A DNA stretch of 64,000 nt from positions 3,008,001 to 3,072,000 of the forward strand of contig CBDDIJ010000003.1 of assembly GCA_965228855.1 (NCBI GenBank). The letters run 5' to 3'. The number at the start of each line of letters is the position of its first letter. Position 1 is the first letter of the stretch. The position numbers and the translations under genes are program-made. Source of the stretch: Candidatus Obscuribacterales bacterium. GTDB taxonomy: Bacteria; Cyanobacteriota; Vampirovibrionia; Obscuribacterales; Obscuribacteraceae. A model generated the notes under the pieces. The model was not told the origin of the DNA. It did not search any database and worked only from the letters and a program-made list of their open reading frames with translations. This document shows positions 34,915 through 57,575 of the stretch, piece after piece.

Positions 34915-35745
34915 CTAGCCTCTTGAGCCGTCAGCCAACCGGGGGCGAAGATCGGTGACGCTGCCGTCGGTTCTTTGCCAAACAGCTCCAAATATGCCCC
35001 GTTCAACCAGGTCATCGTAGACAGAAAACACACATTTTCCTGGACCTACACCGGCTTCTTCCAACAATGGTTGAGTCCACTTTTGAAGAGTCATGATCCT
35101 TGGCGCACTTCCTGTGACAACCCAGATCGGAAATCCGGTTTTCAGGAAAGCACGAATTTTCGGCTCCCAATGACGTGTTTGACGGAAGTTCCCAGTGTCG
35201 ATTTCCAATAGGATACGCATCTGCTCCATTTGAGGATACGCAAATGAAATTGTCGCATCAGCTTGTTCGGCACCGAATACGATATCACCCGAAAGTTCCT
35301 TCCAGAACTCACGCCCGGTCGTAAAGTCCAGAGATTCAATGGCGCTCTGGTATTGAGCTTCCTCTAATGCCAATCGCACGTCGACTAACCGCAGGAAGTG
35401 TTCCTTATGATAAGTATGCGGCGGTCCGGTCGGAATTTCCTCCCACGAGATGCCACGATGCTGTTCGAGCGCTTTGGCACCCGCGGTGGTAAGAAAATAA
35501 ATCAGCTCAGGACGCCCACGCCCTTCCATCCGTCCACTCGAAGAACAGCCGGTGAAGCCGGCTTGCTGCAATCGTCGCAATCGCTTGCGAGCGGTTTCAT
35601 AACTGATATCGCTAAAGCAAAGCCGAGCAAGCTGTGTGGACGTCACGGTTCTGTGCAAATAAAGTTGCAACAGCGCCAGCAAATCACGCTCCATCAAAAC
35701 TAACGACTTTTTCCGAACCTTACTCCGCGCAACCCGCTCAACCAT
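34915..35745 (-). CDS. Replication-relaxation (Replic_Relax-like) protein: wHTH + PD-(D/E)XK-like domain
   Basis: ERDLLALLQLYLHRTVTSTQL...ARKRLRRL...YFLTTAG (wHTH), HKEHFLRLVDV, ADA, LEIDTG pattern; GAGG SD before MVERV. Confidence 0.75.
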   Translation of the reverse strand: MVERVARSKVRKKSLVLMERDLLALLQLYLHRTVTSTQLARLCFSDISYETARKRLRRLQQAGFTGCSSSGRMEGRGRPELIYFLTTAGAKALEQHRGISWEEIPTGPPHTYHKEHFLRLVDVRLALEEAQYQSAIESLDFTTGREFWKELSGDIVFGAEQADATISFAYPQMEQMRILLEIDTGNFRQTRHWEPKIRAFLKTGFPIWVVTGSAPRIMTLQKWTQPLLEEAGVGPGKCVFSVYDDLVERGIFGAVWQRTDGSVTDLRPRLADGSRG

Positions 35746-35969
35746 AGACACAGATCTACCGCCTCTGAATTCCCTATGCAAATACAACCGGAATTTCCGT
35801 GCCCCCAGATATCGCAGGACTATCTTGGGACAGCCATTCGAACTGCAACTTCAACGGCCGTATTTGTACCCCTTAAATAATTGTAGATCATGATTGCCCG
35901 ACTGACGATCACTTTGCTACCAACGACCCATAATTCTCACTTCCGGCGGTCTTCTTGAAAGGTTCAGAT

Positions 35970-36007
35970 AAAACAAAAGGTCACGCGGCTTCGCAAAGCC
36001 GCGCGAC
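35970..36007 (-). terminator. Intrinsic terminator downstream of virD4-like gene
   Basis: Minus strand GTCGCGCGGCTT-TGCG-AAGCCGCGTGAC followed by CTTTTGTTTT. Confidence 0.75.
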
Positions 36008-36085
36008 ACCGAAACCGTCAAACCACGAGACATTCTCAGACTGTTTAGAACTCGCGCGCCGAGGTTCGCACTCGACGCGCCTGAC

Positions 36086-39000
36086 TTAGAATTCGACGCC
36101 CTGTTTCTTGCTGTGAGCCGGGTTGAAACCGAATTTGGCTACATCCGGATTCATGCTGGTCACGGTCGAGCGGTGATAGGGATTATTCTGTCCTGCGCCG
36201 ACAGCCTCAGCGGCGACACGCTGCGAGAGCGGTCCGGCATTGGGATTGCCGCCCGTGCCGTACGCCATGCGAGGGTCCACCGGAGCCTGAGCCGGAGCTT
36301 GACCTTGAGCTTGGGCTTGGGCATATGGATTGGCTGCTCCCATTTGCTGAGCGGCTTCCGCCATCGAAGGACGCTTGGACGGTAGGTTCTCACGCGAGGT
36401 CACTTCGAGCCCACCGTAGCGAGGCTGCGGTCTGCCTGTTTCCTTTCTTGCTCCCATTGGTCCGACCACTTGTTGTTGGACCGCCTGGATAGTGTCTTCG
36501 TGATTCGCTTGTTGCTGCGGCGCCGCGAGACTCGGGTTGAGCGACGGGATTGCCGACTGCGCTACCGGAGCTGCTGCAACGACATCAATCTTCTTGCCGC
36601 ACTCAATACAGAACTTGCCTTTGCCGGCATGCTTGCCACAGTGAGGGCAGTCTCTTTCGGAACCGGCGGGAGCCGATGGAGCCGCTTGCATCGGTTCGAC
36701 CACTGAACCGGTCACTGCAGTCTCGATTTGACCATACGGTTGTTGAGCGAACCCGCTGCCGGGGTTGGGGTCAAAGCTCTGTCCGGCGTTGTAACCATCG
36801 CCGATATTGCCGTTGCCACCTGCGTATCCATACGGATCTGTAGTCGGTCCCATCGCTTGAGCCGCTGCTCTCGACGCCGCTTGCAGGTTGGCGAGCTGGT
36901 CATTGCCATAGCCCTGAGCGAAGCCAGGCGCCGCATGCGGTGCCATTCCTTGCTGTGCTGCTACCGTGCCAGCGGCAAAAGCGCCGGCGGTTTCAGACAT
37001 CATGCGACCTGCGTTGGCGAAATCGCCTGCACCATGAGGTACCTGAGCAAAAGCTTGCGGTTGATGCTGCTGCATATTGGTCTGTTCAGGAGCCCTGCCA
37101 AGCAAGCTGCCGATTACCGATTGCACTCCTGTGGTGACCACCTGAGCCAGCTGATTTCCGACAGAACTCGCCGTGGGCGCAACTGGCTCCTGAGGCTGGT
37201 GCTGATGCATGCCGTTCTGTGGAGCTTGCTGGCCGTTTGGACCATCGTGGAAAACATTATTGATTGCGTCTGCTGCGTTCGGAACAGACATGAATGTCGG
37301 CACCGCATTCGGTGACGGAGCGCCGGGAATCGGAGCAGCATGACCTGGTCCATCGCCGCGGCGAACCGAGACGTTGTGCAACAAGTGCAATCTGGCAATT
37401 TCTTCAATACCTCTCAAGTCGACCATGAAAGGTTTTGTTTCGCCGAATTCTGGGTCGCCTGCAGGCGCCAGGTAAACGAGCGCGTGCTGCTTCTCCATCC
37501 GTTTAATTGTGTCAGAGTCAACTCGCGCAACTACTTGTTGCGAGTGAATTCTGTTCCAACTGGACGGGAAGATACCGAAACCTGTCGATTGATAGTGGTC
37601 TGCAATACCAGGGACGATAATGGCGTGCTTGCCGATTTCTTCAGAGAAGAATGCTGCCGTTTGTTCGTCCGCGTTGTGCAGACAGACACGAATTGCGCAG
37701 TTAGAGAATATGGTTCGCATTTCAGCTTCGGCGTTCTTGCCGCCGGAAGTGATCTGAGAGATGTTCTGGAGGATGAGTGTCAATCCGCCGTTGGCACCCC
37801 GGACGATAGCTGACAATCTGCCTGCTACGTCGATGTTCAAGGTTTGATATTCGTCGAAGAATGCGAACAATGGCAGGACCGACTTGGTACCGTATCTGGT
37901 GTGCAAAGCTTGTTGCATTTGATAGACGAAGCACGCAGCTAGAGACTCAGCGTCAGGTCCGAGTGATGCCGGCGCACCGAAGATGAGCACGGTCGGTCTG
38001 TTCATCGCTGCTTTCAAATCGATGTTCGAATATTCCGTAACCGCGAGAACGCCCGGGTTCTTAAACATACGCAGACGACCACGTACGCCCTGGATGTTCT
38101 TATCCCAGTCAGCATCGGTTCTGATGATGGACGAAAGACGCTGCGTCATTTCGCTCAACTCGGTGCCGTTGACTTCGGGTCTGTTTTTCGCCTGTCTCAA
38201 GGACTCGACGATGTTGCGACGGTTGTTGACCAGCTTCATCAAACCACGAGGGTTGCATGGAAGCTGCTCGAGTTCAGAAGCTTGACCGTTTTCATCTTCG
38301 CCGATGACCTGAACGGCGCCCCATTTGAGTAGTTGGGCAAGACCTTCGATGTAACCCATGTCACGCTCAGCCCAGTGCTGCTCTTCCGCGTCGAGTGAGT
38401 TGACGTCCTGCACAATCGAACTTGCAAATGTGTTGGGCGGCAGATCTAGAGGATTCCAGTGCACGGAATCTGTGTCGAGAGGGTTGAAGTACAGTGTGTC
38501 GAAACCGGCTTGTTGAGCCTCAGGCAACACTGTGTATTTGAAACCTTCTTTCTTTTCGTCGAGGTTCGGGTCGTTAGCCTTAGCTTCCAACGCGATGACG
38601 ACACAAGGTTTAGCCAACAAAGATTTGATGATGGCGCGCATCAAGGTCGTTTTACCGGAACCGGACGGCGCTACGATGAACATGTTTTTGTTTGGCAGGC
38701 GACCCATCGGAATCGTGATCGGCAGGTGCGTTCTTGCCAGGAAACCAAACGGAATGACAACGCCGTCGACTTCTTCCCAGGTCGCTTCCGGATTGCGCTT
38801 GCCCATGCGACCGTGACGGCGCAAGTTAGGCGGGCAGAGGAACGACCGCTCGTAATCGCGAGGCGTGAGCATGCCGGACGGGGGATTGAAAGTTCTGATT
38901 GTCTGCCAGGGGAAGAGGCGCTTCTTGTGCGCCGCCGCGATAATCAACGCAAGCAAGACGAGCGTCGGCAGCAAAATCGCGATCGACGTAGCGTCAAGGA

Positions 39001-39595
39001 AACCGTGATTTTTCTTCGGTCCGTGCTGCGCGCCGGCACCGTGCATCTGCGGGTGCGCGTGCGGAATTCCTTCAAGGCGAAGATTTTTGCCTTGCTTCAT
39101 CTGTCCGGCTGTGGGAGGTCGACCTTGAGTCGAATCAAGTGTGGTCTGACCTTGATAGGCGCCCATTTGATGACCGCCGCCAGGAGCTTGAGGAAGTCCG
39201 GGAACTTGTGAGCCGCCACCTGAAAGAATTGTCGCACCGGGCTGGATGAGAGGATCCGCACCAGCGCCGCCTTGCATCATACCTTGCTGCATGGGGGGCA
39301 TGCCCTGACCTTGCATCATCGGCATTTGCTGCATTGGCATTTGTTGCATCGGCATCTGCTGCATCGGCATCGGATGCCCGGTAGCCGGATCGATTGCCCC
39401 AGCCTGATACATTGGAGAGCCGCCCGCCATCGGGTATCCGCCGGCTTGAAGTTGACCGCCGTAGTGCTGCTGGGGAAGCATAGCGCCAAGCTGTTGGCGC
39501 TTCTCGTACTCTTTTGCGGAGATAGTCTCGCCAGTATCTACGTCCTTGTAGCAGACTGTCTGTCCTTTCTCATTAATAACTGCTTTGTACGTCAT
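36086..39595 (-). CDS. virD4: VirD4/TraG-like type IV coupling protein with long low-complexity termini and Zn ribbon
   Basis: TM helix, Walker A APSGSGKTT, HWNPL, Walker B FFDEYQ, RGANGGLTLILQNISQI, IFSNC, TAAFFSEEIG; CPHC..CIEC near the C-terminus. Confidence 0.88.
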   Translation of the reverse strand: MTYKAVINEKGQTVCYKDVDTGETISAKEYEKRQQLGAMLPQQHYGGQLQAGGYPMAGGSPMYQAGAIDPATGHPMPMQQMPMQQMPMQQMPMMQGQGMPPMQQGMMQGGAGADPLIQPGATILSGGGSQVPGLPQAPGGGHQMGAYQGQTTLDSTQGRPPTAGQMKQGKNLRLEGIPHAHPQMHGAGAQHGPKKNHGFLDATSIAILLPTLVLLALIIAAAHKKRLFPWQTIRTFNPPSGMLTPRDYERSFLCPPNLRRHGRMGKRNPEATWEEVDGVVIPFGFLARTHLPITIPMGRLPNKNMFIVAPSGSGKTTLMRAIIKSLLAKPCVVIALEAKANDPNLDEKKEGFKYTVLPEAQQAGFDTLYFNPLDTDSVHWNPLDLPPNTFASSIVQDVNSLDAEEQHWAERDMGYIEGLAQLLKWGAVQVIGEDENGQASELEQLPCNPRGLMKLVNNRRNIVESLRQAKNRPEVNGTELSEMTQRLSSIIRTDADWDKNIQGVRGRLRMFKNPGVLAVTEYSNIDLKAAMNRPTVLIFGAPASLGPDAESLAACFVYQMQQALHTRYGTKSVLPLFAFFDEYQTLNIDVAGRLSAIVRGANGGLTLILQNISQITSGGKNAEAEMRTIFSNCAIRVCLHNADEQTAAFFSEEIGKHAIIVPGIADHYQSTGFGIFPSSWNRIHSQQVVARVDSDTIKRMEKQHALVYLAPAGDPEFGETKPFMVDLRGIEEIARLHLLHNVSVRRGDGPGHAAPIPGAPSPNAVPTFMSVPNAADAINNVFHDGPNGQQAPQNGMHQHQPQEPVAPTASSVGNQLAQVVTTGVQSVIGSLLGRAPEQTNMQQHQPQAFAQVPHGAGDFANAGRMMSETAGAFAAGTVAAQQGMAPHAAPGFAQGYGNDQLANLQAASRAAAQAMGPTTDPYGYAGGNGNIGDGYNAGQSFDPNPGSGFAQQPYGQIETAVTGSVVEPMQAAPSAPAGSERDCPHCGKHAGKGKFCIECGKKIDVVAAAPVAQSAIPSLNPSLAAPQQQANHEDTIQAVQQQVVGPMGARKETGRPQPRYGGLEVTSRENLPSKRPSMAEAAQQMGAANPYAQAQAQGQAPAQAPVDPRMAYGTGGNPNAGPLSQRVAAEAVGAGQNNPYHRSTVTSMNPDVAKFGFNPAHSKKQGVEF

Positions 39596-39777: not shown

Positions 39778-40425
39778 TTAAATGCCAAAACCTTTTCCAG
39801 CTTCTCCCATACCGGCGATCTGCAATTTGCGATCCGGGGTCATTTTGACGAGATACTCGAATTTGACTTCGTGAACGTTTTGTCCTTTACCAGGCACATC
39901 TAGAATCTGCTTTCCTTCGACCAGCACTACGACCGCCCCATCCGGGCGTTGTTCTCCGATTTTCACAGAGTTCGTAATAAATTGGCTCACGGCGCCGGAT
40001 TGAGCGATAGTCTGAGCCATCTCCGGCGACCAGATGTTCGCGCGGTATGCTTGAGCGCACTCCGGCGACATATATTGAATCGCTTTCTCCTGGCTGCTTC
40101 CAGCAGTTTTCGCGCTGAAATCCCACGCCATCGGCAACCAATCACTGATCAAACGAAGAGCATCGTCAGCATTGGTTGGAGCAACCTGGGGTTCGGCCGT
40201 AAGCGGCGCCGCGCCTGGCTGCTGCGCCTGCGCATTGTATGCAGCAGCGCCGCGTCCACCGGTGACGTCCGGATGGTCGGCCCATTTGGGGCGTTGTTTG
40301 GCGCTTTGTTGCGGTCGCTGTTCAGGCTGAAGCAGGAGCGTGAAAAACATTCCCACCATGGCGCCGGCAAAGCCCACGATGATCAATGTCAGCTTATATT
40401 TTTCACCCGCCTGATAGTCGAACAT
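39778..40425 (-). CDS. Bitopic membrane protein, VirB8/TcpC-like (NTF2-like) candidate
   Basis: Single N-terminal TM, linker, then helices followed by beta-strands (VVVLVEGKQI, VKFEYLVK, LQIAG); lies between virB4 and virD4. Confidence 0.55.
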   Translation of the reverse strand: MFDYQAGEKYKLTLIIVGFAGAMVGMFFTLLLQPEQRPQQSAKQRPKWADHPDVTGGRGAAAYNAQAQQPGAAPLTAEPQVAPTNADDALRLISDWLPMAWDFSAKTAGSSQEKAIQYMSPECAQAYRANIWSPEMAQTIAQSGAVSQFITNSVKIGEQRPDGAVVVLVEGKQILDVPGKGQNVHEVKFEYLVKMTPDRKLQIAGMGEAGKGFGI

Positions 40426-40513: not shown

Positions 40514-43339
40514 CTAACCAGCGAGCAGCAAGTCGGGTGTAAACGTTTCCGGCGTATAGCCCTGACCAAGCAAATGGCAGGCCCAACGCGCGTCTCCGCG
40601 GCACAATTCAATCATGCGCGAGCGCATCGGCTGGTCCGTGTTAGGTTCAGTCGTTGCGACCCAGTACATGAAACGCGGGACCACAAGCCTGACTACACCA
40701 CGCGACATCTTGTGGTAGACAAGAAACGCGTCTGAATATTCTCTGTTTTTTCTAGTCAAATGACCGATCGAATTCATCTCCGCCGGCGTCAAACCGCAGG
40801 AATCACGAATGAGATCGAAGTTGCTCGGGTCGTTACCGAGAATGATCTTGAGTGAGCTGTTTGTCGCCAGGTTTCGAGCGCGCTCATCGCGCAACAAGTC
40901 GCCCAGCTCCTGGGAGATTCCGATGAACAGTAGACCTAAGTGGCGTGATGTACGCGAGGCGTCTTCAACCAGAGTCTTACCACCCTCGTATCTGAGCAGT
41001 CGCCACAACTCGTCTATGCAAAAAACAAATCGCGCCGGCTTGCCGGATTTCATCTGCTGCTGCTTGTGCTCGGCTGCGTTTCTCAAAACGAAGTCTGAAA
41101 CGAACAGAGTGACCACAGCCTCAAGAGTCTTATCGTGAGCCAGATCTGACGTATCGAACACAATCAATCTCGCGTTCGACGGAATCGACGTCGGTCCGTC
41201 GAAAAGTTTTCCGTAGATTGCGCCTCGGGTGTAGAGCGACAATCTGTTGACCAGGTCCTCGCAAGTCTCACCACGACGAGTACCTTTGCTCTTCTCGGCT
41301 TCTAGCTTGAGCCACTCGATCAAGTCTGACTCAATCGGCACGCGACCTTTCGTCGCGCACTCTCGATAAATCGCCTGAATGCCCATCATCAAGACCGGCT
41401 TCTCATCCTTGGTCATTGCTTGTTCGCCACGCTCACCGAGCATGACCGAATGGAAATTCAAAATCTTGATGATATGCGACTCGGGTGGATTGGCCGGGTC
41501 GATTTGCTTTCCGTCGGGACCGGCAAGCGGCAAGTCATATAGGTTTAAACAGACCTGACCATCGGGACCGAGTCTGATGTAAGAGGTTTCATCGTAAACC
41601 TCGGCGAGCATTCTGTATGAGCCGGAACGGTCAATAATCACCACTTTGGCGCCGGCAAGCATCTTCATCTGAATGATCTGCTGTGCCACCATGGATTTAC
41701 CTTCACCAGGCTGACCGAAGACTACACAGAGAGCGTTTGGCAGTTTTTCATCGTATGGATTCAGGAAAACCGGCTCCAATGTTTCTTTAGAGAAACCGAG
41801 CCAACTGCCCTTCGTCTCAGAGCCGAGCTTGGCATGAACAAATGGGAATGAGTTGCGCACGGTCGGCGTTCTCACAGCCTTTCCGCGGCGAGTGACATCA
41901 AGTCCCATGCCCGGAAGTGAACCGATGAAAAGACCCTTCTGCTCGCGATAGCCCACTACGAAACGGGCGCCGCGGCACTGAGGACCTGCGGTTCGCACGA
42001 GTTCCGTCGCACGGTTTAGCTCCTCTAGCGACTCGCCGAAGAGGGTGAAATAGATCGCGTAGTTGAACACTTCCATGTTGGATGTGTACAGTTCCGATCC
42101 GATATGCGCCGCTTCCTGTGCCTTTTCCGCTTCTTCCTGGTTAGGAGTCGAGCGTTGTCCCATCAAACTTTGATAGGTGTTCGCCGTGGCTTGCGCTTGT
42201 TTGCGCTGCATGGATTTTCTGAAAACTTCTTTGTCGAGCTTGTGAGCGTAGATGTTCATTCGCCACTCGCAGTTCAAGCGCAGAAGCGGCGAGAGCCACA
42301 ATGGACCGGTTCTTTCAGGGAGACGGCTCATATAAAGCGTGCGAATAAACAGCCCTTCTTTTTCCTTCGCATCCTCGACTGTTAGACTGGCGAGGTCCGA
42401 GATTCGCGCGTAATCCGGATTGCTGAAATCGTACTCCGATTCGGTCAATTGCTGACGAATCGTGGCTGGCTCCATATCAGGGAAAACGCGTCTCACTTTC
42501 GCAGAGACCGGCTGAGTGGTCGGTCTGAGCGGCTCAGGAAGCAGATCGTCAGTGACCTGTCCGAGTTTCGGATTCAGTTCTTTATAGAGCATTCTGAAAT
42601 ATTCGAGCGCGGAAACCGGACGGCCGGTCATTCCGCAGGCACCGAGCGTGCCCATGTAACCTTGCGCGCGTTGCAACAAAGTCGCGACGTTTTTCATATG
42701 CGCGCCCACGCTCTGACGAGCTGCGGTGTTTCCGAAGACGTCCTTGAGCGTCGTAGTGAAGCCTTCGATAAAACCGGCTTTCTTGGCTGGTTTTTCTTTG
42801 GGCGGACGATAGCAGAATGTGACGAAGAACTTCAATTCCGGAATAAAATTCCGAGATAAGAGGCTGGCCTGGTCGTTCTCAACGCACTTCGCTACGTACT
42901 CGAGAAATTCGTCTTTGACTACTTCGACCGGATGCTTCTCGAAATATTCGCGCTTAGTTGTGTTGTGGCAAACAATCGTGAATTGCACAGAAGTATCGAT
43001 ACCATTCAGGAATCCCGTGAAGTGGTTCATCATTGAGACCAGGCGCACTTCATCGAATCCGCTGACGTGAACGCCATCGACTTCGAACATCGTTCTATAA
43101 CTGCCGTCTTTCAGAACGATGATACCAAGTCCGGTGGCATCGTCCTGGAACAAATCCCAGAGAGGAAGAAGTCCGGCAGCTGGAGGGTGAGGTCTGGGAA
43201 CAGCCATTGAAGGCAGTTTCGCCATTGCCGCAGCAACTTTCGGGTCAAGCTTTTCCTTCTCGCCTTTCTTTAGAAGCGGAAGGCCAAGCTCTGGCTGTTT
43301 TGATCTGGGAAGAGAAGTCGTCATTTTTGACTGTACCAT
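40514..43339 (-). CDS. virB4: VirB4-family T4SS ATPase
   Basis: GFSKETLEPVFLNPY, Walker A GQPGEGKS, VVIIDRSGSY, LNLY, Walker B CIDELW, RTSRHLG..ISQ, TNSSLKIIL. Confidence 0.92.
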   Translation of the reverse strand: MVQSKMTTSLPRSKQPELGLPLLKKGEKEKLDPKVAAAMAKLPSMAVPRPHPPAAGLLPLWDLFQDDATGLGIIVLKDGSYRTMFEVDGVHVSGFDEVRLVSMMNHFTGFLNGIDTSVQFTIVCHNTTKREYFEKHPVEVVKDEFLEYVAKCVENDQASLLSRNFIPELKFFVTFCYRPPKEKPAKKAGFIEGFTTTLKDVFGNTAARQSVGAHMKNVATLLQRAQGYMGTLGACGMTGRPVSALEYFRMLYKELNPKLGQVTDDLLPEPLRPTTQPVSAKVRRVFPDMEPATIRQQLTESEYDFSNPDYARISDLASLTVEDAKEKEGLFIRTLYMSRLPERTGPLWLSPLLRLNCEWRMNIYAHKLDKEVFRKSMQRKQAQATANTYQSLMGQRSTPNQEEAEKAQEAAHIGSELYTSNMEVFNYAIYFTLFGESLEELNRATELVRTAGPQCRGARFVVGYREQKGLFIGSLPGMGLDVTRRGKAVRTPTVRNSFPFVHAKLGSETKGSWLGFSKETLEPVFLNPYDEKLPNALCVVFGQPGEGKSMVAQQIIQMKMLAGAKVVIIDRSGSYRMLAEVYDETSYIRLGPDGQVCLNLYDLPLAGPDGKQIDPANPPESHIIKILNFHSVMLGERGEQAMTKDEKPVLMMGIQAIYRECATKGRVPIESDLIEWLKLEAEKSKGTRRGETCEDLVNRLSLYTRGAIYGKLFDGPTSIPSNARLIVFDTSDLAHDKTLEAVVTLFVSDFVLRNAAEHKQQQMKSGKPARFVFCIDELWRLLRYEGGKTLVEDASRTSRHLGLLFIGISQELGDLLRDERARNLATNSSLKIILGNDPSNFDLIRDSCGLTPAEMNSIGHLTRKNREYSDAFLVYHKMSRGVVRLVVPRFMYWVATTEPNTDQPMRSRMIELCRGDARWACHLLGQGYTPETFTPDLLLAG

Positions 43340-43371: not shown

Positions 43372-43785
43372 CTAGGCTGGTTCTTCGATTAATGTACTTT
43401 TTTCGATGAAGGCATTGACTTCGATTTCGAGGGAATCATCGAGGTCCTGGTCGATAAACTCCGGCAGCTTTTCATCTTTGAGAAAACGTACTGGATTCGG
43501 GTCCGGTCCTGGAATGTAGACCTGAGAACTCATGTAGAAGTTCATTATGCCTTCCCAGTGTCCGGTTGTGTGATTGAGAGTGAAGAGGCAATATGCTGGT
43601 CCGAGCAGACCAAGAAATATTGCTACGTCCAGTCTCAGGTCGTGCCCCATGAACGGCACTGGGCTCAGCCAGGAGTAAAGCTGAGTGGAAACTATCAAAC
43701 TGCCTAAACACGCAATTAGCTGGTCGTACCGCAGTCCGAACAGCTTTGGGGAGTCTTCTAAATTTAGTGGTGTTTGGTCTTCCAT
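43372..43785 (-). CDS. PrgI/VirB3-like membrane protein
   Basis: TPLNLEDSPKLFGLRYDQL followed by two TMs; immediately upstream of virB4. Confidence 0.7.
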   Translation of the reverse strand: MEDQTPLNLEDSPKLFGLRYDQLIACLGSLIVSTQLYSWLSPVPFMGHDLRLDVAIFLGLLGPAYCLFTLNHTTGHWEGIMNFYMSSQVYIPGPDPNPVRFLKDEKLPEFIDQDLDDSLEIEVNAFIEKSTLIEEPA

Positions 43786-44843: not shown

Positions 44844-44892
44844 AGAATGCCCATTTTTAGATTAAACTTGCGCGCCCGCCCTATGCTCCCCG

Positions 44893-45055
44893 ACTCACCC
44901 CGCCTCTTCAAACTTCTCCCCGCCCTCCGTTCCCCCACTCGCCCCGCATCTTCAAACTTCTCCCCGCACTCCGTTCCCACACTCGCCCCGCATCTTCAAA
45001 CTTCTCCCCGCCCTCCGTTCCCCCACTCGCCCCGCATCTTCAAACTTCTCCCCGC
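44893..45055. repeat. 44-bp tandem repeat x3.7, C-rich on plus / G-tract-rich on minus
   Basis: ACTCGCCCCGCATCTTCAAACTTCTCCCCGC(C/A)CTCCGTTCCC(C/A)C units starting at 44893, 44937, 44981, 45025. Confidence 0.95.
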
Positions 45056-45129
45056 ACTCGCCCCGCCTCTCACTTCGCTCGCCTCTCACTCTCGCCCCGC
45101 GCCCCACTCGCCTCACCTCTCGAAACGGC

Positions 45130-45668: not shown

Positions 45669-45733
45669 CGGGTCGAAGGTGCGTTAGTCGGGTCGGAGGT
45701 GTTAGTCGGCCCGAAGGCTGTGTTAGTCGTCCG

Positions 45734-48700
45734 TTAGTCGTCTGGATCGTAGTAGCGACGGGAACCGCCACCACCACCGCTGCCGCCGGACTGCGAGTAC
45801 GAGCTCTGGTCGTCATAATCCTGATAGGTTCCGGAGCCGCCGTAATAGGGGTCCTTGCCTGCCAGACGCTGATCGACTTTCTCGCGGATTACGCGCACGA
45901 CTTGTTTGTGGAGCGAGGCGCCCGGTTTGCCGGAGTAGTCGGGATGGCTGATGATCTGATTGACGAAGTTCTTGGTCGGATACGATTGCAATTTCACGAC
46001 AGGGTGCTCTTGCGGCTCAGGTGAATTCGAGATGTCGTCTGCGTACTCGGCGAGCAGCTCGGTTCTGTATTCCTGTGTCGCGCCGTGAATTGCTTCGGCG
46101 GCGAAGATGCTCTTCGGATCGATGTTGTTCTGGTTCCACTTCGGATCGCAATCCATCATCGCTTGAACGACTTGAGTGCGCACCAGGCTGAAGTTATTAC
46201 CGCCAAGCTTTCCGGCGGTGACAGCTGCGGTTTGAGCCATCGACTTATCGGTTGCCATAACCTGCATTGCAACAGACGCAATCTTCGGATCCGAAAGCTG
46301 CTCATACGAGAAGCCTGCTGAATGCAAGTCGTAGACCACGTTGTACGCCATCTCGGCTGTCGTATCGTACTGGTTGACCATATTGCGCAAGTTGGCTTCG
46401 ACCTCGCCGGCACTGACACCACCGATGTCGCCTGTTTTACCGAACATCAGTTCGGCTTCAACATGCTGCTCGATGACCTGTCCGGAATTGCCAGGATCGT
46501 TGTAACCACCCATCTGCATATTGACTTGCGGAGTCGAATCTCTGAGCGGCGCTTCGAACCGAACGCGCTGCGTGCCGAGATTGTTGCTGCCGCCGCCATT
46601 GTTTCCGCCTGCGGTGAAAGTCACGTTTGCACGAATCTCGGACGGACGCGAACCGGCAGCCGGAGGTACTTTGATCAAACTCGGGTCGATAGGAGGAGGA
46701 GTCGGTGTATGTCCTGGAACAATCTCCACTTCCACGTTTTGTTCGTTGATGATTGGAGGAGGAGTGCCTACGCCGCCAACGTTGTTGATGTGGATAGGAC
46801 CGGTGCCGCTTGGATGCGAGCTGCCTTGCATACGCATTTGCTGCGTTGGAGGGGTGCCCATACCCTGGTTTGGAGCTTGTCTGAAAGTGACATTCGCTCT
46901 CGTGCCCGGGCCCATTCCGGGTCCCATAATCGGAGGTGTAATTCCGCCGAGATTGAGCGGTCCAACAGGCGAGGCGCCACCGTCGACGTCAACTGGGACG
47001 TCAACAACCTGTTCCATACCGCCGCCGCCACCGGGAAGAACCGTTCCAGAGACATTGGTTGAAACCATCGGCGATCCGCCGCCACCACCGCCGCCTCTGG
47101 GTTGGATGGGAGACACGCCGCCGCCACCACCGGCGAAACCACCACCGCCATTCTTGACGCTGTTTCCGATTCCCTGAACAGCCTTGAGAGCTTGATAGGT
47201 TTGAACGTACGAACCAACGTCCGCTCCGGCACCGACGATGTTCGCGACATCGTTGACCATTTTCACGTCTCGGCAGGCATCGTCGCCGAACTCTGCGCTC
47301 AATGCCGTCGCCGTGTTGACGACTGCCGGCGGCAGTAGTTGTGCTTCGCGACCGGTCCAGGCGTCTGCGACCATCGGATGAGCATCCGGAATCTCGTCGT
47401 TCTTTCTTGCTTCGAGGTAAGAAGAACATCCGGCGATTGCGGCACGTTGCTCCCATGGACGCGATCTGAGAACGGTTGCGTTTGTGGCTATAGCTCTTGA
47501 GGTCGCGTTGATCGGGATCGCGTTTCTCACCAGAGTTTCCGTAGCAGGGATGTGACCCCAGTGCCAGCTGGATTCCGGCGAACCGGCGTCAGTCATGATG
47601 TGGACGCCCCAGGCTTGCTGTTCGTCGGACATCGGACCATAGCGTTGGTTCAGATACTCGGTATACGCATTACCTGGCTGACCGTTGACGTATGCTTGCG
47701 AGCCGGCTACCGATTCAGTGTACAGGGCTTGCTGGAACGCTTGTTTGGCGTTCGCGGTTTGAGCCCAGGAGCCGCCGTTATAAGAAAGGATACCGGATGC
47801 CATTCTTTGAGCGAAACCTTTGGGCTTGTCGGCACCAGCTGCGATGGCAGACTGACGGGCTGCGTCATATGCGACAGGGTCATTGCCTACCAGAGTCGCA
47901 TAACCGGCGGTCATCATCTGCAGAGCCAGTCTGTCAGGGTCCATGCCTTCGGCGTGTCTGACGTGGAAGGTTTGTCCCTTCGCGTTACCCATCAATTCGG
48001 CTTCACCGGAAGTTGATGGTCCGAGAGTCACATCCTGAGCCAAACGGATGCCGCCAGAAATACCACGAGGTGGAATCCAGCGATAGCCTGCTTGTTGATA
48101 GTTGTTCATCGGAACAACCGACTGTGTGGCTTGAAGTCTTTGTTCGTGCGGGCTTGCCGGAGCTTGACCGTGTGGAGTTCTGCCGTCGTCCGGAGGAGTG
48201 TGCATGCCGCCGCCGCCACCATCGCCGCCATTTCCGCCGCCGCCACCGAAACCACCAGCACGGCTGGTGAGGTTCATCGGTCTAATCGGCGAGGAGTTAT
48301 CCGGCTCCCAGCCTGGATCTATGAAACCGCCCGGCGCTTGCGCACCTGTCCTGCCGGTTCCAGCTCTTCGCGCAGCGGGTACCGGGATGACCCCGCCCAG
48401 GTTCACACCCGGAATTCCACCAGCGGCAACTGTCGGTTGAATTTCGACCTTGCCGCCATCAGTCGTAGCGCCCGGAGTGCCGGTCGGAGGTTTGATTTCA
48501 CCTGTGACTGTTTGCTGAGCGTTGACGTTGTCGCCACCAGCCGGAGTCAAGCCAGGCTGTATACGCACTTGTCCGTCAGCGGTACCACCGGGAGTGACAA
48601 CTTCGCTGCCTTCGGCGGCTTTGCCGAGATTGCCAGTCGGAGCTTGTACGCGTCGTCCAGGCAACGAGACAGTGACGGGGACTTTGCCATCGGCACCAGC

Positions 48701-52034: not shown

Positions 52035-52041
52035 AAGATTT

Positions 52042-52458
52042 TTAGAGACCGCCGCCGAGACCGCCGTAGTTGTTGATAGCGAAGGTACCGATCAAGTGAA
52101 CCGCAGTCGGTCCGCCGAATCCAACGCCCAGTCCTTTTGCGACGTTCATTGCCGACTCACCGCCATCTCTCTGACCGAAGGCAATCTTCATGCCGGCGAG
52201 TGACGAAGGTACTGTCGAGAGAGCTGTGACTACACGCGAGATGTCTCGAGCGGTGTCATAACCGAAGTCTGCCAATTGTCCTACTTCGTTCGATTGTCCG
52301 TAACGGGGGTCAACCGGAGCGCCTACCAGACCTTGTGCATGTGCGGCTTGGTCGTAGATACCGAACGCCATGAGCACCAGTTGGGGAGCCAGAAGGAAAC
52401 CAACACGAGTGGCAACCTTGAATTTGTGCGAAGAGGTGAGTTTGCTGAGTTTAGACAT
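52042..52458 (-). CDS. VirB2/TrbC-like pilin, copy 1
   Basis: Long leader ending AHA|Q, two weakly hydrophobic helices joined by AGMKIAFGQRDGG, GLGVGFGG; AGGAGG SD; T4SS context. Confidence 0.65.
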   Translation of the reverse strand: MSKLSKLTSSHKFKVATRVGFLLAPQLVLMAFGIYDQAAHAQGLVGAPVDPRYGQSNEVGQLADFGYDTARDISRVVTALSTVPSSLAGMKIAFGQRDGGESAMNVAKGLGVGFGGPTAVHLIGTFAINNYGGLGGGL

Positions 52459-52508: not shown

Positions 52509-53186
52509 TTACTTGTGGTGGTTTATGATTTGACCGTAAACATCGGAGTTGGAGCTAAATCCAGAGCTCGTAGGTCTGGTCGATCCCGGTGAGAAGAATT
52601 GATTTCCGTACGATGCGACTTTCGGCTGTGCGTTCAGGCTCGATGGTTGTTTTGGTTTGACCAATCTGCCGGATACAGCACTTCGAGTTTGCGCCGGGCG
52701 TTTTGGAACCATTCGTCCGGACAAACTCTTGTTCGAACTCGGGGCTGTCATCTGCTTCGGCGCTGCCGGTGGAAGCGATTGGGCGACCACTGGCGCATTT
52801 TGTTGGGGTGCTCCGAATCCGGGATTGAACGGGGTTGCCGTCAAAGACGGTTTCGGAACGATATTTGCCTGGGGCTGACCATACGACATGCTGGGATGTA
52901 CGCTGGTCGCGACTCGCGGCTGAACCGGTTGTGGCTTCGGCGCTGGTTTGAGCACACTCGGATCGACACCGAGGAAGCTTGCTGCTTTAGGGACAGCTCC
53001 GTGTCCAACGCTCGTGGTGGGAGGATTGAAATTCTGATAGTGACGTTTCTCAAACTGTTGCGGTCCCCATTTGTTGGGTTCGAAGTCGAAACGTGCTCCG
53101 CGTTGACCTTGAGCCATCGCCGGGTCTACAGCGCCGACTGCAAGAGTGGCGAGTGTCAAAATTGAGAGGGTAATGATGTTCTTCAT
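52509..53186 (-). CDS. Secreted Pro/Ser/Gln-rich hypothetical protein
   Basis: Signal peptide AMA|Q; low-complexity body. Confidence 0.75.
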   Translation of the reverse strand: MKNIITLSILTLATLAVGAVDPAMAQGQRGARFDFEPNKWGPQQFEKRHYQNFNPPTTSVGHGAVPKAASFLGVDPSVLKPAPKPQPVQPRVATSVHPSMSYGQPQANIVPKPSLTATPFNPGFGAPQQNAPVVAQSLPPAAPKQMTAPSSNKSLSGRMVPKRPAQTRSAVSGRLVKPKQPSSLNAQPKVASYGNQFFSPGSTRPTSSGFSSNSDVYGQIINHHK

Positions 53187-53197
53187 TGCTGTAAATC

Positions 53198-53956
53198 CTA
53201 AAAACGAAATCCGTTTCTCATCCCGAAACCTGTCATCGTCAGACCTGTGAAACCTAAACCGAAGAGCGAACCAGGTCTTCTGAGTTGCGTGGCCAGTAGC
53301 CCGGCTCCGAGTCCTGCAGTTCCCGCAAGGTTGTTGGCGAAGCCGCCTCTGCGAGTGTCGCGTCTTACGATAGGGGTCTTAGATCCTCCGGTTAGAGTTT
53401 GGGTTTGACTGGAATTTCCGTATTGCGGTGCATTGTTGTTGCTCGCGAAACCTGGATTGAGCCAGTCGGGTTGACCGATTGCGTACTGACCTTGAGCGCC
53501 GGGCATCTGGTTCGGTTGGTTGAACGGGGTAAATTGACCAGGTGCACCCATTGCTTGTTGGCCGTACTGCGGCGTTTGATTTGACAGCTGTGTATTCCCA
53601 AGAAGTGAATCGAATGCTGCTCTGCGCATGTCCTTTGCAGACATGATGCCGCTTGCCGGATTCAAATTCATATGTCCAGCATCAGGAGTCATCTCCGTGA
53701 GCTGCCCAGGGGTAGCACTCATCATCATTCCTGCACCGGCATCTGCCTGGGGCACCACCTCTGGTGGCAGGAAGGAATCTTGAGAATAATTAGCTCCCAT
53801 GGATTGATCGAGAGAAGGAGATTGAGCTTCGAAGCCCTGCGCCAGGACCGGTGTCGAAAGCTGGCTCAAGAAGCCAACCGTAAGAACGACTGCAAGCATT
53901 TGCTTGCGACCATTCTTTTTCGATTCCGTGTGTCTAGCTTGCATCTCGTTTTCCAA
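53198..53956 (-). CDS. Secreted Gln/Gly/Met-rich protein with C-terminal glycine-rich hydrophobic segment
   Basis: Signal peptide VLA|Q; C-terminal GTAGLGAGLL...LFGLGFTGLTMTGFG. Confidence 0.75.
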   Translation of the reverse strand: MENEMQARHTESKKNGRKQMLAVVLTVGFLSQLSTPVLAQGFEAQSPSLDQSMGANYSQDSFLPPEVVPQADAGAGMMMSATPGQLTEMTPDAGHMNLNPASGIMSAKDMRRAAFDSLLGNTQLSNQTPQYGQQAMGAPGQFTPFNQPNQMPGAQGQYAIGQPDWLNPGFASNNNAPQYGNSSQTQTLTGGSKTPIVRRDTRRGGFANNLAGTAGLGAGLLATQLRRPGSLFGLGFTGLTMTGFGMRNGFRF

Positions 53957-54012
53957 ATCGTTGGGTTGCCGTCGAACGTGAGTTCATAGTACGAAATCGC
54001 TCATCGGACGAA

Positions 54013-54050
54013 CATCGGTGGTTTTCCCCCCACTATGGGAAAATCCCCCC
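54013..54050 (-). promoter_or_regulatory. Shared upstream motif copy 3 (CATCGGTGGTTTTCCC...GGGAAAATCCCC)
   Basis: Inverted repeat GGTTTTCCC/GGGAAAATCC about 60 bp upstream of 53956; shares CATYGGNGRWWWTCCC with copies 1 and 2. Confidence 0.45.
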
Positions 54051-54412
54051 TCCCTTCATCCATATATAATTTTGTCTACTAGAAAATATCGTGCGTCTCA
54101 AAGCTCAAGAGAGAGCACCTGTAGGTCTTTCGAGAGCCCACGGAAGTCAAGCGCCACTAGTTTGGCAGTCCTGCGTAGACAGAAATTTTGTTTTCCGTCA
54201 TCGCAGGATAGACAATTAGAGCTTTACAAATGCCTAAAGACAGCATCATCGTCGGATCCGAGTTCGTATGCTCTCCAAGGCATGTATGCCGCGGACGCCT
54301 GGCGGCTGCGGTCAGGCACTCGTTAGGCACTCGTTCCAAATCGCACTCAAGAGCCAGCTACCTCAAAATCGGCTCCGACACCTCAGAGCGTCCCGCGGCG
54401 GCGCTTAGCGTT

Positions 54413-54490
54413 CTTCTACCCACAGTAGATTTCGACCGCAAAGGTCCCTGACTCAAGCCGCTTCGGGTTGCTTCTACCCACAGTAGATTT
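54413..54490. repeat. Two exact 20-bp hairpin repeats CTTCTACCCACAGTAGATTT, 38 bp apart
   Basis: Copies at 54413-54432 and 54471-54490. Confidence 0.9.
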
Positions 54491-54650
54491 GCCAGTAGAG
54501 GTCTCTCTAGGTTCGACAAGAAGAGACTCGGGAAAAACGGCGGTCCGCTGTTCGGCAGGACCGCCGGGAACAGCAAAATCGTTCTCGTTTAACTTGCTGG
54601 TGGAATCTAGAAATACTAGAAGAGACCATTAGAGCTCTCGAAGGAGCTAT

Positions 54651-54695
54651 GTCTGTTTTGAAAATGTCTGTTTAGAAATCGTCTGTTTCGAAATA
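54651..54695. repeat. 15-bp tandem repeat x3 (GTCTGTTTNGAAA)
   Basis: Units at 54651, 54666, 54681. Confidence 0.85.
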
Positions 54696-55006
54696 AATCG
54701 ACTCAGGTCTTGCGTCGAGACTGAAGTTTCAATTGACACTGCTGATGCTGTTTCACCTTGGCGGCTATGAGAACGCCGGCGACGAGCATCTAAGAGTCTC
54801 GACTGTTTAGGACGCAAACCTTCGACGTTCGAACTGAAGATTCGCATACATATAAATGATTGGGCTGATTCTTTTTGAGTTCGCAAGGGATTTGCGCAGA
54901 CCGCTTCTAATAGCGGTATCAGATATAAATGACTAGAGTCCGCACTTGCGCTGACGGTAGTTTGCCGCGCCTGGCGTGCTGAGGTGATGATCGTCGGAAA
55001 CGGTTT

Positions 55007-55075
55007 ATGGTCATGGGAAGGCCCAGCAGATGGTCACGGGAGTGTCCAGAAGATGGTCATGGGAAGGACCGGCAG
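55007..55075. repeat. 23-bp tandem repeat x3 (ATGGTCAYGGGA...)
   Basis: Units at 55007, 55030, 55053. Confidence 0.85.
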
Positions 55076-55137
55076 ATTGCCATCCGCCGATCCTTTCCGA
55101 GCCGTTCGACAAATTTACTTTCCCAGTCGAGATCTTT

Positions 55138-55560
55138 TTAGAGACCGCCGCCGAGACCGCCGTAGTTGTTGATGGCGAATGTACCGATCAAGTGAACCGC
55201 TGTCGGTCCGCCGAATCCTACACCCAAGCCTTTGGCGACGTTCATTGCGGATTCTCCGCCGTCTCTCTGACCGAATGCGATCTTCATTCCTGCCAGTGAC
55301 GAAGGCACTGTGGATAGCGCTGTGACAACACGGGAGATGTCACGGGCGGTGTCATAACCAAAGTCAGCCAACTGACCTACTTCGTTCGATTGTCCGTAAC
55401 GTGGGTCGACCGGAGCGCCGACCAGACCTTGTGCGTGTGCGGCTTGGTCATAGATACCGAAGGCCATGAGCACCAGCTGAGGCGCCAGGAGGAAACCGAC
55501 GCGAGTGGCGACTTTGAACTTGTGCGAGGACTTAATCTCTTTAAGCGATAGCTTAGCCAT
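55138..55560 (-). CDS. VirB2/TrbC-like pilin, copy 2
   Basis: Last 130 aa identical to 52042..52458; AAGGAG SD. Confidence 0.65.
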   Translation of the reverse strand: MAKLSLKEIKSSHKFKVATRVGFLLAPQLVLMAFGIYDQAAHAQGLVGAPVDPRYGQSNEVGQLADFGYDTARDISRVVTALSTVPSSLAGMKIAFGQRDGGESAMNVAKGLGVGFGGPTAVHLIGTFAINNYGGLGGGL

Positions 55561-55700
55561 TGTTGAATCTCCTTGAGTCTATTTTTACGGTTTTTGAAAA
55601 GTCTTTTTTTGTTTAGGACTGAGTCCTGTGTGCTGTTCGGACTGTTGTCCTGAGTTTTGCGATTGCGAGGACTTGCGTCCTTGAGGTGATGAACTAAGAG

Positions 55701-56696
55701 TTAGAAGTTGGTGATGATTGCCGTTGGCAGTAGAAGTTGATCTCTCTTTTGCGGGTTGGTATTCGCGGGATCAAACTGTGCGTAGGGGAAACCAAAATCA
55801 GTTGATTTGCTCGAGTATTGCGGCAGTCTTCTCATGCCTTGACCAAACTCTGTCGTTTGTTGAGCGGTCAGACCGAGGATGCCGTTTTGTCTCGTCGAGG
55901 ACAGACCGTAGTCTTGGACCGTTGAGCCTGTCGGAATCGTAGTTCCGCCGGCTTGGAATCTTTGACCGCCGCCCAGGTCGATGGCGCTGTTTCTCCAGCC
56001 GTTACCTGACGGTACACCGGTTACTGCACCCCAACCAGCCCAGGGTCCTAATCTTTCGATGTTGTCCTGGCTTCCGTCTGTACCGCCGCCACCGATGATG
56101 GAGTTTCTGCCGCGATATTCATATTGATGGGATTCTTGTCCGCCTCGTCTGACTGTCGGGATGGAGGTGTAATAGCCACCGGTTCCTGGAAGTCCGCCAG
56201 CGGGATTGATGTTGATTTCGTCAGCCGGGTTGATGTAGCCCATCGGAGCTTGCATTGAACCCGGGTCAGGACCAGGCGTTGACGGAGGTGCCGGAATGAA
56301 CGGTGTCAGAGCCGGTCCCAGAACTCCTGGAGGAGACTGAACTGCTGGGTTGATTGGCAGTGGAATACCCGAAGTGCTGTTGTCGATCTGGTTTGCCGGA
56401 ATTGACGGCACCCAGGGAAGGAGTGTGAGCGGCATACCAGCCTGACCAGGATGAACTCCGGCAGGTGTAGGACCGTCGCCCATCGCAGGCGGTTGACCTT
56501 CCGGCGGAGGTACAAAGGGTGCCGAGCTCGGAGCGCCATCCAACAACGGCGTACGGATTGTTTCAACCGGTGCTCCGGGCATTACTCCCGGTTGCACTGG
56601 ATTGCCGGGAAACGGCTGTGCATTTGCCGCTGCCGAGATGCTGACGCTGAGGGCAGCTGCTGCAAATAATGTGGAGAGAATCTTGGACTTACGCAT
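55701..56696 (-). CDS. Secreted Pro/Gly-rich protein; paralogue of 56757..57575
   Basis: Signal peptide ANA|Q, GGAGG SD; PPEGQPPAMGDG, DPGS, RRGGQ and T[DE]FG motifs. Confidence 0.8.
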   Translation of the reverse strand: MRKSKILSTLFAAAALSVSISAAANAQPFPGNPVQPGVMPGAPVETIRTPLLDGAPSSAPFVPPPEGQPPAMGDGPTPAGVHPGQAGMPLTLLPWVPSIPANQIDNSTSGIPLPINPAVQSPPGVLGPALTPFIPAPPSTPGPDPGSMQAPMGYINPADEININPAGGLPGTGGYYTSIPTVRRGGQESHQYEYRGRNSIIGGGGTDGSQDNIERLGPWAGWGAVTGVPSGNGWRNSAIDLGGGQRFQAGGTTIPTGSTVQDYGLSSTRQNGILGLTAQQTTEFGQGMRRLPQYSSKSTDFGFPYAQFDPANTNPQKRDQLLLPTAIITNF

Positions 56697-56756
56697 TGTT
56701 GGCCTCCTGAAGCCATATACAACTAGTGGTTTTGGCGATGCCGTCGTCGGCGGTGC

Positions 56757-57575
56757 CTAGTATGGAGCGATGGTGAGTCGAGCTCTGAGGTTTTCCCCTT
56801 TGAAAAAGGTTCTGTTTCCATTGAGGTCGGTGGTGGATTGAGCGCCTGGCAAATTCGCCGATCGGTTTGCTTGACCTCTTTGTCCCGGTGACTGTTGATT
56901 TCGTGGTCCGTCTTCCGATGACTGAGGTGCTTTCTGGAGGTTCGACTTTTGGCTGAGTCGTTCGCCGAAGTCGGTGGTTTGCGAGCCTCCTGTGCCTCTC
57001 ATGAAGCTGCGGAGTCCGTGATCTTCACTTGTCTGTCCGCCCCATCTTTGTATAGGAGCACTTCCCGAGATTCCGCCGCCGCTGTTTATGTTTGTCACCG
57101 TGACCGGTGGTTGATAAAAGTCCGGAGGGGAGTCGATGCTTCCAGGGTCGGAGGTCGGATAGATGGTCGGAGGAGTCAGGTACCCTGCTGCGGCGGCTGT
57201 AGCTGCAGCTTTGCCGTCTTGTCCCGGCGGAATCAATGGCATGCTGACGTGAGATGCCGGCGTCGGGACACCGTAACCGGCGTGACCGGTGTTGATGCCC
57301 ATCGGCGCATAGCCGTCTCCAATCGGGGGGGCCTGTCCTTGAGGAGGTGCAGAGTAAGGGGGCTGCGTCGAACCGTTTTCGACGTTCGGCAACCACATGC
57401 TAGAGTCTGCATCATAATTAGGATTAGGATTCCAGACCTGGGCGTTGGCATTGCCGGTCAGAGAGACTACAGCCACAAGTGCCAGCGTTGCCGCTAACAT
57501 CAATTTGCCGTTTCTCGTCTGAGCCTTGTTCACTTTGTTCTCCGTTTTGTAGGTTTTCCGGTTCGGCAACGTCAT
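56757..57575 (-). CDS. Secreted Pro/Gly-rich protein; first gene of the T4SS-like locus
   Basis: Signal peptide ANA|Q, GAGG SD; PPQGQAPPIGDG, DPGS, RWGGQ, TTDFG. Confidence 0.8.
   Translation of the reverse strand: MTLPNRKTYKTENKVNKAQTRNGKLMLAATLALVAVVSLTGNANAQVWNPNPNYDADSSMWLPNVENGSTQPPYSAPPQGQAPPIGDGYAPMGINTGHAGYGVPTPASHVSMPLIPPGQDGKAAATAAAAGYLTPPTIYPTSDPGSIDSPPDFYQPPVTVTNINSGGGISGSAPIQRWGGQTSEDHGLRSFMRGTGGSQTTDFGERLSQKSNLQKAPQSSEDGPRNQQSPGQRGQANRSANLPGAQSTTDLNGNRTFFKGENLRARLTIAPY

Follow-up and report, generated by a model that had tools for sequence, protein, structure and literature searches.

The question raised by this locus is why a conjugation-type channel, together with its coupling ATPase and a relaxase-family protein, should be a fixed part of the chromosome of a bacterium with two membranes. 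The locus, a type IV secretion system (T4SS)-like cluster hereafter called locus 1, spans positions 34915-57575 of a 64-kb stretch of DNA (the window) on contig C3 of an 8.2-Mb assembly (CBDDIJ010000003.1, GCA_965228855.1) of a non-photosynthetic member of the Cyanobacteriota, Ca. Obscuribacterales. An earlier note, made from the letters alone, had described 13 co-oriented genes of a minimal, domesticated machine in a host that looked diderm. All 13 open reading frames (ORFs) are present on the minus strand as described, and BamA and LpxC are found above cut-off in the host genome, which is therefore diderm. The results presented below establish locus 1 as a core chromosomal locus of the order, vertically inherited and under strong purifying selection. 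We favour, with about even credence, its interpretation as a domesticated conjugation machine of monoderm type, resembling mating-pair formation (MPF) class MPF_FATA, which would export chromosomal DNA to contacting cells. The 13 genes are given here in order of transcription; locus 2 denotes a second VirB4 locus treated further on.

56757-57575, minus strand: secreted protein s272, paralogue of s331
55701-56696, minus strand: secreted Pro/Gly-rich protein s331, of no known family and conserved across the order
55138-55560, minus strand: pilin-like protein B, a duplicate of A whose mature part is the same
53198-53956, minus strand: secreted Gly/Gln-rich protein s252, with a C-terminal glycine-rich hydrophobic tail
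52509-53186, minus strand: secreted Pro/Gln-rich protein s225, with weak homology to a secreted protein of locus 2
52042-52458, minus strand: pilin-like protein A, signal peptide and helical hairpin
45734-51433, minus strand: extended VirB6/TrbL-like protein of 1899 aa, with signal peptide, about five transmembrane (TM) peaks and a Gly/Pro-rich tail
44002-44703, minus strand: DUF2225-like zinc-ribbon and helical-repeat protein, with a paralogue at the same position in locus 2
43372-43785, minus strand: VirB3/PrgI-like membrane protein, assigned by position and hydrophobicity
40514-43339, minus strand: VirB4 ATPase of 941 aa, matching the TraG P-loop/AAA_10 and CD1110/TraC models
39778-40425, minus strand: VirB8-like bitopic protein of 215 aa, with an NTF2-like fold in its predicted structure
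36086-39595, minus strand: VirD4 coupling ATPase of 1169 aa, with one TM helix and a T4SS-DNA_transf match
34915-35787, minus strand: MOBC-family Replic_Relax (PF13814) relaxase-like protein, above the PF13814 cut-off, likely start at 35745

The distribution of the locus was assessed by counting as a VirB4 orthologue any best match above about 60% identity. VirB4 was thus found in 100 of the 107 genomes of the order, which span 2.3-9.6 Mb; six of the others hold only a paralogue of 31% identity and one gave no match. VirD4 and the Replic_Relax gene are each present in 99/107 genomes (38/39 high-quality ones). Two copies of all three genes occur in G097, and extra matches elsewhere are fragments or weak. 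The marker genes are all missing from G020 and G086 (85-88% complete), and two of them from G075, absences that may reflect either assembly gaps or true losses. No close VirB4 was detected in 221 other Vampirovibrionia genomes, six of which gave a weak match (E value 6e-16 or worse). Wherever the contigs extend far enough, gene order is identical in the 70 loci that have a close VirB4, and both flanks are constant across relatives: upstream, a coiled-coil gene and rarA were recovered in seven of eight fetched stretches (the eighth is too short), with uvrC, radA and lgt next in the upstream stretches shown; downstream, the relaxase gene is followed by oppF. The flanks in the window had been called chromosomal, and they are, with oppF and a 3-hydroxyacyl-CoA dehydrogenase gene on one side and rarA-uvrC-radA-lgt on the other. 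No tRNA or Rfam match lies in the window, and the nearest of 17 tyrosine-recombinase matches in a genome-wide search is about 160 kb from the locus; no serine recombinase was seen among the scanned flanking genes, the genome-wide search having covered tyrosine integrases only. A patchy distribution accompanied by an integrase and attachment (att) sites was hence not seen, in keeping with the earlier note, which had reported neither integrase nor att-tRNA.

Trees were compared for 29 genomes; two were left out, one lacking RpoB and the other having only part of it. The VirB4 and RpoB trees have 18 of 26 splits in common (on average 0.3 and at most 2 after shuffling); of 17 well-supported splits 14 agree, and two supported pairs conflict. 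The VirD4 and RpoB trees have 16 of 26 in common with zero supported conflicts. Across seven genome pairs, the ratio of nonsynonymous to synonymous substitution rates (dN/dS) was 0.015-0.058 for VirB4 (six pairs, one being saturated), 0.013-0.063 for VirD4 and 0.006-0.047 for RpoB. Vertical inheritance and domestication, as proposed in that note, are thus borne out by near-universal presence at a single site, VirB4 and VirD4 trees that largely match RpoB, and low dN/dS. By codon adaptation, the pilins rank within the top 1% of 5,091 long ORFs, and VirD4 and VirB6 within the top 5%. The mature pilin, found in 40/40 genomes of the order and 0/111 others, is 88-100% identical across the order, compared with 83-94% for RpoB.

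The Walker motifs of the two ATPases had been described as intact, and they are so across orthologues (both motifs in 68/68 for VirB4; 56/57 and 57/57 for VirD4). VirB4 scores below every NCBIfam cut-off, with the TraC-F-type model slightly above CD1110, and is 20-25% identical to the plasmid proteins that rank as its 30 best matches; in a tree with few named references it forms a long branch that falls weakly on the MPF_FATA side (Shimodaira-Hasegawa-like approximate likelihood-ratio test 82). The best NCBIfam model for VirD4, which carries long low-complexity tails at both its N- and C-terminus, is CD1115. The predicted structure of the VirB8-like protein (predicted local distance difference test, pLDDT, 85.6) matches DotI, TraM and VirB8 in Foldseek at E values from 5e-6 to 1e-3, and also IcmL-like proteins and the plastid division proteins ARC6/PARC6, the latter as well as VirB8. 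For the membrane part of the VirB6-like protein, language-model look-alikes in a protein atlas carry TrbL_3/4/5 (0.90-0.92). By these models, the VirB6 and VirB8 inner-membrane parts of an MPF_FATA-type T4SS are predicted to be present. No Pfam match was obtained for the VirB3-like protein of the window, and its locus-2 counterpart gives a weak PrgI match (E value 0.08). The original gene assignments are therefore sustained for VirB8, by fold, and for VirB6, by its TrbL look-alikes, while those of VirB3 and VirB2 rest on position, size and shape. The suggestion that the giant VirB6 replaces missing parts needs correcting: the length of complete orthologues varies from 647 to 2381 aa, and the highly variable tail is thus not a required substitute. 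In small-genome lineages (L077, L078, L082, L086, L088; 2.5-4.4 Mb) either VirB6 is short (647-843 aa) or the relaxase lacks one catalytic acid; VirB4, VirD4 and the pilin are still kept there.

The statement that the locus has no HUH relaxase is literally correct and nevertheless misleading, since its last gene belongs to PF13814, the non-HUH MOBC relaxase family (PMC5357655), whose members are related to PD-(D/E)XK nucleases and not to HUH enzymes (PMC12857230). The protein has an N-terminal winged helix, an acid triad (D177/E195/D197), Phe214 and an invariant His206. The triad aligns with D152, E170 and E172 of the TraX-type relaxase of pTEF1, in a weak profile match (probability 17%); it is invariant in 121/121 close sequences and kept in 20 of 23 diverse orthologues. 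Two features lie between virD4 and the relaxase gene:

35980-36007, minus strand: intrinsic-terminator-like hairpin after virD4, a consensus match only
35861-35890, minus strand: conserved element of about 30 nt upstream of the relaxase gene, a promoter, operator or origin-of-transfer (oriT) candidate

The element is the top-scoring site in the genome (33 bits, the next at 21), its GGGGTA core is present in 26/33 loci, and it moves along with the relaxase gene where that gene is displaced. Among 82 tabulated genomes, 40 have virD4 within 6 kb of the relaxase gene, 33 have 8-32 kb between the two and nine have them on separate contigs, so that the two genes share one contig within 32 kb in 73/82. 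The inserts between them consist of ordinary genes, reach about 28 kb and differ among genera.

Two pilin copies also occur in other genomes of the genus and in some other genera. The modelled hairpin has a pLDDT of 70 and its hydropathy lies under the TM threshold used; no Pfam match was found in 26 members of the family, and no specific fold match for the predicted structure. The VirB2 label therefore stays putative, resting on the signal peptide, the helical hairpin shape and the position upstream of virB6/virB3. Pilins are now reported in Gram-positive systems (10.64898/2025.12.18.695078). Elsewhere in the genome, in orphan genes at G000:C3:868465-871377, C3:504177-504812, C5:128288-131584, C2:182989-184031, C3:1670064-1670597 and C3:3339165-3339833, either the mature pilin or the N-terminal segment of VirB6 recurs as a copy fused to unrelated domains, and one pilin fusion of about 1000 aa recurs in many genera. 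Possible roles for these fusions are as decoys, exclusion factors or minor pilins.

The outer-membrane core was sought across the genome. VirB9 (CagX) gave no match, VirB11 was not found linked to locus 1, and five TrbI-like genes are weak matches, none of them near locus 1. Weak TrbI matches also occur in 82/141 genomes of other orders, which have no close VirB4, so these genes are not markers of this system; one of them lies 15-21 kb from the locus-2 VirB4 in four genomes. The T2SSE-family ATPases of the genome include that of a Tad operon and a contaminant TrbB, and VirB11/TrbE trb genes were found only on a chimeric contaminant contig within the assembly. The absence of VirB9 and of linked VirB10 or VirB11 was thus correctly read, and no complete virB7/9/10/11 set was found elsewhere in the genome. 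Homologues of VirB10 are found in every diderm class, and MPF_FATA has no core (PMC4027160), so it is unusual for a diderm to carry a fixed FATA-like channel. Three secretins, ComEC and pilus-type ATPases are present in the host. The contaminant contig, C4, has about 29% GC and eukaryote-like genes in its first 55 kb; the remainder, at about 65% GC, includes a trb conjugation region that is truncated. In another genome, G011:C1 carries two canonical TrbI/VirB10 genes (about 205 bits), probably ordinary MPF_T elements.

The machine is not alone in the genome, where a second VirB4 locus, extra VirB6 and VirB8 genes and a relaxase paralogue are also conserved. Locus 2 (G000:C2:1990062-2007731; L001, L002) is order-wide and encodes a VirB4 28-32% identical to that of locus 1, along with two secreted proteins, a lipoprotein with TolC-like helices, two VirB6-like proteins, the zinc-protein paralogue, VirB3 and two small bitopic proteins; VirD4 and relaxase are absent from it. 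Its order is the same in 15 fetched stretches, one of which lacks the VirB6 pair. Locus 3 (G000:C3:2665882-2674808; L118) is an operon of a tetratricopeptide repeat (TPR) protein, an RpoB paralogue, a pilin-like protein, a secreted protein and a relaxase paralogue, found in 16/16 stretches, with the pilin-like gene unmatched in one. This second RpoB is 43% identical to the main RpoB, is present in 28 of 30 genomes searched and has fixed changes in a conserved C-terminal motif (17/17); no description of an order-wide second RpoB was found in the literature searched. The locus-3 relaxase paralogue aligns to the relaxase of the window with 96.7% probability, lacks the E-x-D motif and is probably catalytically dead; it occurs in 56/56 genomes of the family, 0/2 of the sister family and 0/143 elsewhere. 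Going by the families that they share, loci 1 and 3 may be functionally tied. Several further genes of these families were noted. A TrbI-like gene lies past two divergent TPR genes at locus 2. Four genomes of the genus (G001, G004, G002, G005; L094-L097) have a lone third VirB4, 63-70% identical to that of locus 2, behind an amino-acid permease cluster and without other T4SS genes. An extra pair of locus-2-type VirB6 genes lies at G000:C3:87870-95287, with a secretin gene 17 kb away, and its orthologues stand directly behind the locus-1 virD4 in G109. A third VirB8-like gene (G000:C2:2071200-2072577) is divergent from a gene for a 147-aa protein resembling a ribbon-helix-helix DNA binder.

If locus 1 exports DNA, an ancestor of the Obscuribacterales would have captured an MPF_FATA-like channel together with VirD4 and a MOBC-like relaxase, and these would have been fixed as a core system. 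VirB4, VirB3, VirB6 and VirB8 would form an inner-membrane channel extruding the abundant pilin, and the Replic_Relax protein would bind and cut chromosomal DNA through its D-E-D metal site, probably without a phosphotyrosine link and perhaps at the conserved element directly upstream of its own gene. VirD4 would pump the DNA out, either as in high-frequency-recombination (Hfr) donors or distributively, and the recipient would recombine it, rarA, uvrC and radA being neighbours of the locus. Candidates for passage through the outer membrane are s225, s252, s331 and s272, the TolC-like lipoprotein of locus 2 and the TrbI-like protein found there, or a borrowed secretin. This interpretation is favoured because the order as a whole has retained the channel along with its coupling ATPase and a nuclease whose metal site is intact, and because the pilin hardly varies and the locus has recombination genes as neighbours; the gene order of an Embleya plasmid described below, the triad in 121/121 sequences, the element travelling with the relaxase gene and the variable inserts beside that gene also count in its favour. 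A number of observations weigh on the other side. The K-x3-Y motif of a plasmid Replic_Relax protein reads K210-x3-F214 here, with Phe in 121/121, and Y181 of TraX is essential (PMC6736028), yet no Tyr stands at the equivalent positions, as given by a motif-anchored alignment to the Embleya protein (Phe214) and an ungapped count from TraX (His206). His206, or Tyr126, which is invariant in close relatives, could be an alternative nucleophile. The missing Tyr lowers but does not remove the case for a nuclease, because MOBC enzymes are reported to cut without a covalent link (PMC12857230, PMC6736028). In addition, E195 is lost in 3/23 diverse orthologues, from small-genome lineages that retain the channel; the relaxase gene sits behind a terminator-like hairpin, so that the conserved element could simply be its promoter; no VirB1-type cell-wall hydrolase is among the 13 genes, the soluble lytic transglycosylase (SLT) genes lying far away; no outer-membrane core was identified by the VirB9/VirB10 searches of the genome; ComEC gives the host another route of DNA uptake; and the largely congruent trees contain no demonstrated transfer event.

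The main rival to DNA export, which we consider possible if rather doubtful, is an organ of cell contact, serving to deliver proteins or to attach (in predation, epibiosis or kin contact), in which VirD4 would recruit proteins and the Replic_Relax protein would act as regulator or co-factor, much as protein delivery or attachment has been argued for the chromosomal T4SS of Patescibacteria (PMC12102498). The Tyr to Phe change and the decay of the triad in some lineages fit such an organ, as do a locus 2 without coupling protein, the greatly varying VirB6 tails and the conservation of the dead relaxase paralogue in 56/56 family genomes, which implies at least one re-use of the fold with its active site lost; Vampirovibrio, of the same class, has also been proposed to attack algae via a T4SS, albeit an unrelated MPF_T (PMC4451040). 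The invariance of the acid triad in all 121 close relatives and the almost invariant pilin are harder to accommodate, and conserved effector- or immunity-like genes were not seen in or beside the locus. Since the direction of transport cannot be read from sequence, locus 1 might instead release DNA for uptake through ComEC and type IV pili, as in the gonococcal genetic island (GGI), or locus 2 might import DNA for repair in the manner of the archaeal Ced system. ComEC, the pilus-type ATPases, the three secretins, the flanking repair genes, the GGI precedent and the existence of two paralogous channels, of which a single one has a coupling protein, lend this some plausibility, whereas a highly adapted, duplicated pilin argues for contact and the GGI works without its pilin; on balance we think it improbable. 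Co-option for the envelope or development (cell-cell junctions, division or surface-layer secretion), under a programme that includes the second RpoB, would explain the core-gene-like conservation, the equally good match of the VirB8-like fold to ARC6/PARC6 and the operon in which the gene of the second RpoB stands together with those of a relaxase paralogue and a pilin-like membrane protein. VirD4 and nuclease are nevertheless still there, in a complete conjugation gene order, and the lack of a close VirB4 in 221 sister-order genomes means that this is not essential envelope machinery of the class, making such a role very improbable. Least credible of all is an immobilised, decaying integrative conjugative element (ICE): the plasmid-like gene order, the variable inserts between virD4 and the relaxase gene, and the fairly complete genomes (G020, G086, G075) without locus-1 VirB4 and VirD4 would suit it, but it is already largely refuted by dN/dS of 0.01-0.06, host-like and highly adapted codons, near-universal single copies, tree congruence and the lack of an integrase or tRNA nearby. 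A wider, vertically inherited mating programme, with locus 1 as donor channel (coupling ATPase and Tyr-less MOBC-like nuclease), locus 2 as recipient or partner channel lacking a coupling protein, and the second RpoB of locus 3 as switch, along with the dead relaxase paralogue and the pilin-like protein of that operon, operating across two outer membranes without a VirB7/9/10 core, strikes us as unlikely.

Should chromosomal DNA export be the function, conjugation would have been turned into a host function across a whole order of the closest non-photosynthetic relatives of the cyanobacteria, a bacterial parallel to regular gene exchange independent of any mobile element. A diderm envelope would then be crossed by a monoderm-type channel lacking the VirB7/9/10 core, and a MOBC-like nuclease would act without its usual Tyr, which would bear on how MOBC relaxases act without a covalent intermediate. 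The order, which is uncultured and poorly understood, is common in wastewater, soil and freshwater; the analysis provides marker genes for it and draws attention to its order-wide second RpoB.

One further feature of the locus is a repeat array between the zinc-protein and VirB6-like genes:

44875-45729, no strand: intergenic repeat array of 44-bp and about 150-bp units, differing between relatives

Related clusters of these units occur at three further genomic sites, and the array breaks short-read assemblies. Between s252 and pilin B, 1.2 kb (53957-55137) contains no convincing gene; this sequence occurs nowhere else in the genome and includes three 23-bp repeats at 55007-55082. Outside the locus, 60699-62333 encodes a fusion of response regulator, LuxR helix-turn-helix (HTH) and Ser/Thr kinase, a similar fusion lying near locus 2.

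Domesticated T4SS loci of monoderm type are already known, from Patescibacteria and from other non-canonical systems, and locus 1 can be placed among them by comparison. Its closest likeness is to modules combining MPF_FATA, VirD4 and MOBC (the Embleya plasmid NZ_CP108778 and the pAD1-like pTEF1), which have the same VirB6-PrgI/VirB3-VirB4-VirD4-Replic_Relax order and also lack VirB7/9/10/11. The actinobacterial Embleya plasmid reads large protein-PrgI-VirB4-VirD4-Replic_Relax-NlpC/P60, likely the ancestral arrangement. Locus 1 differs from these modules in being a fixed chromosomal core in a diderm, in having Phe for the relaxase Tyr and extra zinc-finger and secreted proteins, and in lacking a cell-wall hydrolase and replication or integration genes. 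The archaeal Ced and Ted systems are domesticated VirB4/VirB6/VirB2-like DNA importers, alike in conjugative origin, chromosomal site and vertical inheritance; they differ in being archaeal and are not known to have such a pairing of relaxase and VirD4, and sequence likeness is marginal (CedD model, E value 0.009). Three classes were rejected for locus 1: an ICE, given no integrase, no att/tRNA site and no patchy distribution; a diderm T4SS class (MPF_T/F/C), given no VirB9/VirB10 core encoded with VirB4; and MPF_C, given no homology to pCC7120alpha conjugation proteins. The cyanobacterial MPF_C of Nostoc pCC7120alpha and the MPF_T of Vampirovibrio chlorellavorus belong to the same phylum and have VirB4 and a coupling protein. 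However, 11 proteins of the Nostoc MPF_C locus, including VirB4 and TrbI/VirB10, gave no match to genes of the loci at E<1e-3, and the Vampirovibrio systems, two of three on plasmids, are unrelated to the locus (PMC4451040, which names Obscuribacter once, on respiration). The Patescibacteria T4SS is likewise lineage-wide, chromosomal and of monoderm type, with VirB2-like pilins and no outer-membrane core. There, relaxases are rare (109 homologues in 103/3,026 genomes) and variable pilin paralogues are linked to host range (PMC12102498), whereas the order studied here has the relaxase-family gene in 99/107 genomes and a pilin that hardly varies, in diderm hosts with genomes of 2.3-9.6 Mb and a pair of VirB4 loci. 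The reviewed cases of non-canonical chromosomal DNA transfer (PMC12857230), namely the GGI, which does not need its pilin, PAPI-1, mycobacterial distributive conjugal transfer (DCT; ESX-1/ESX-4) and mycoplasma chromosomal transfer (MCT), resemble locus 1, as it is read here, in that a reduced VirB4/VirD4 core moves chromosomal DNA or other machines are borrowed to cross the envelope, and DCT has paired paralogous systems like the paired loci here. Yet the GGI, PAPI-1 and MCT are patchy mobile elements and DCT uses type VII secretion, none of them being an order-wide core locus of such composition. No description of locus 1 was found in the literature searched, and what sets it apart is the diderm host, the universal Tyr-less MOBC-like gene, the paired VirB4 loci and the RpoB-paralogue operon.

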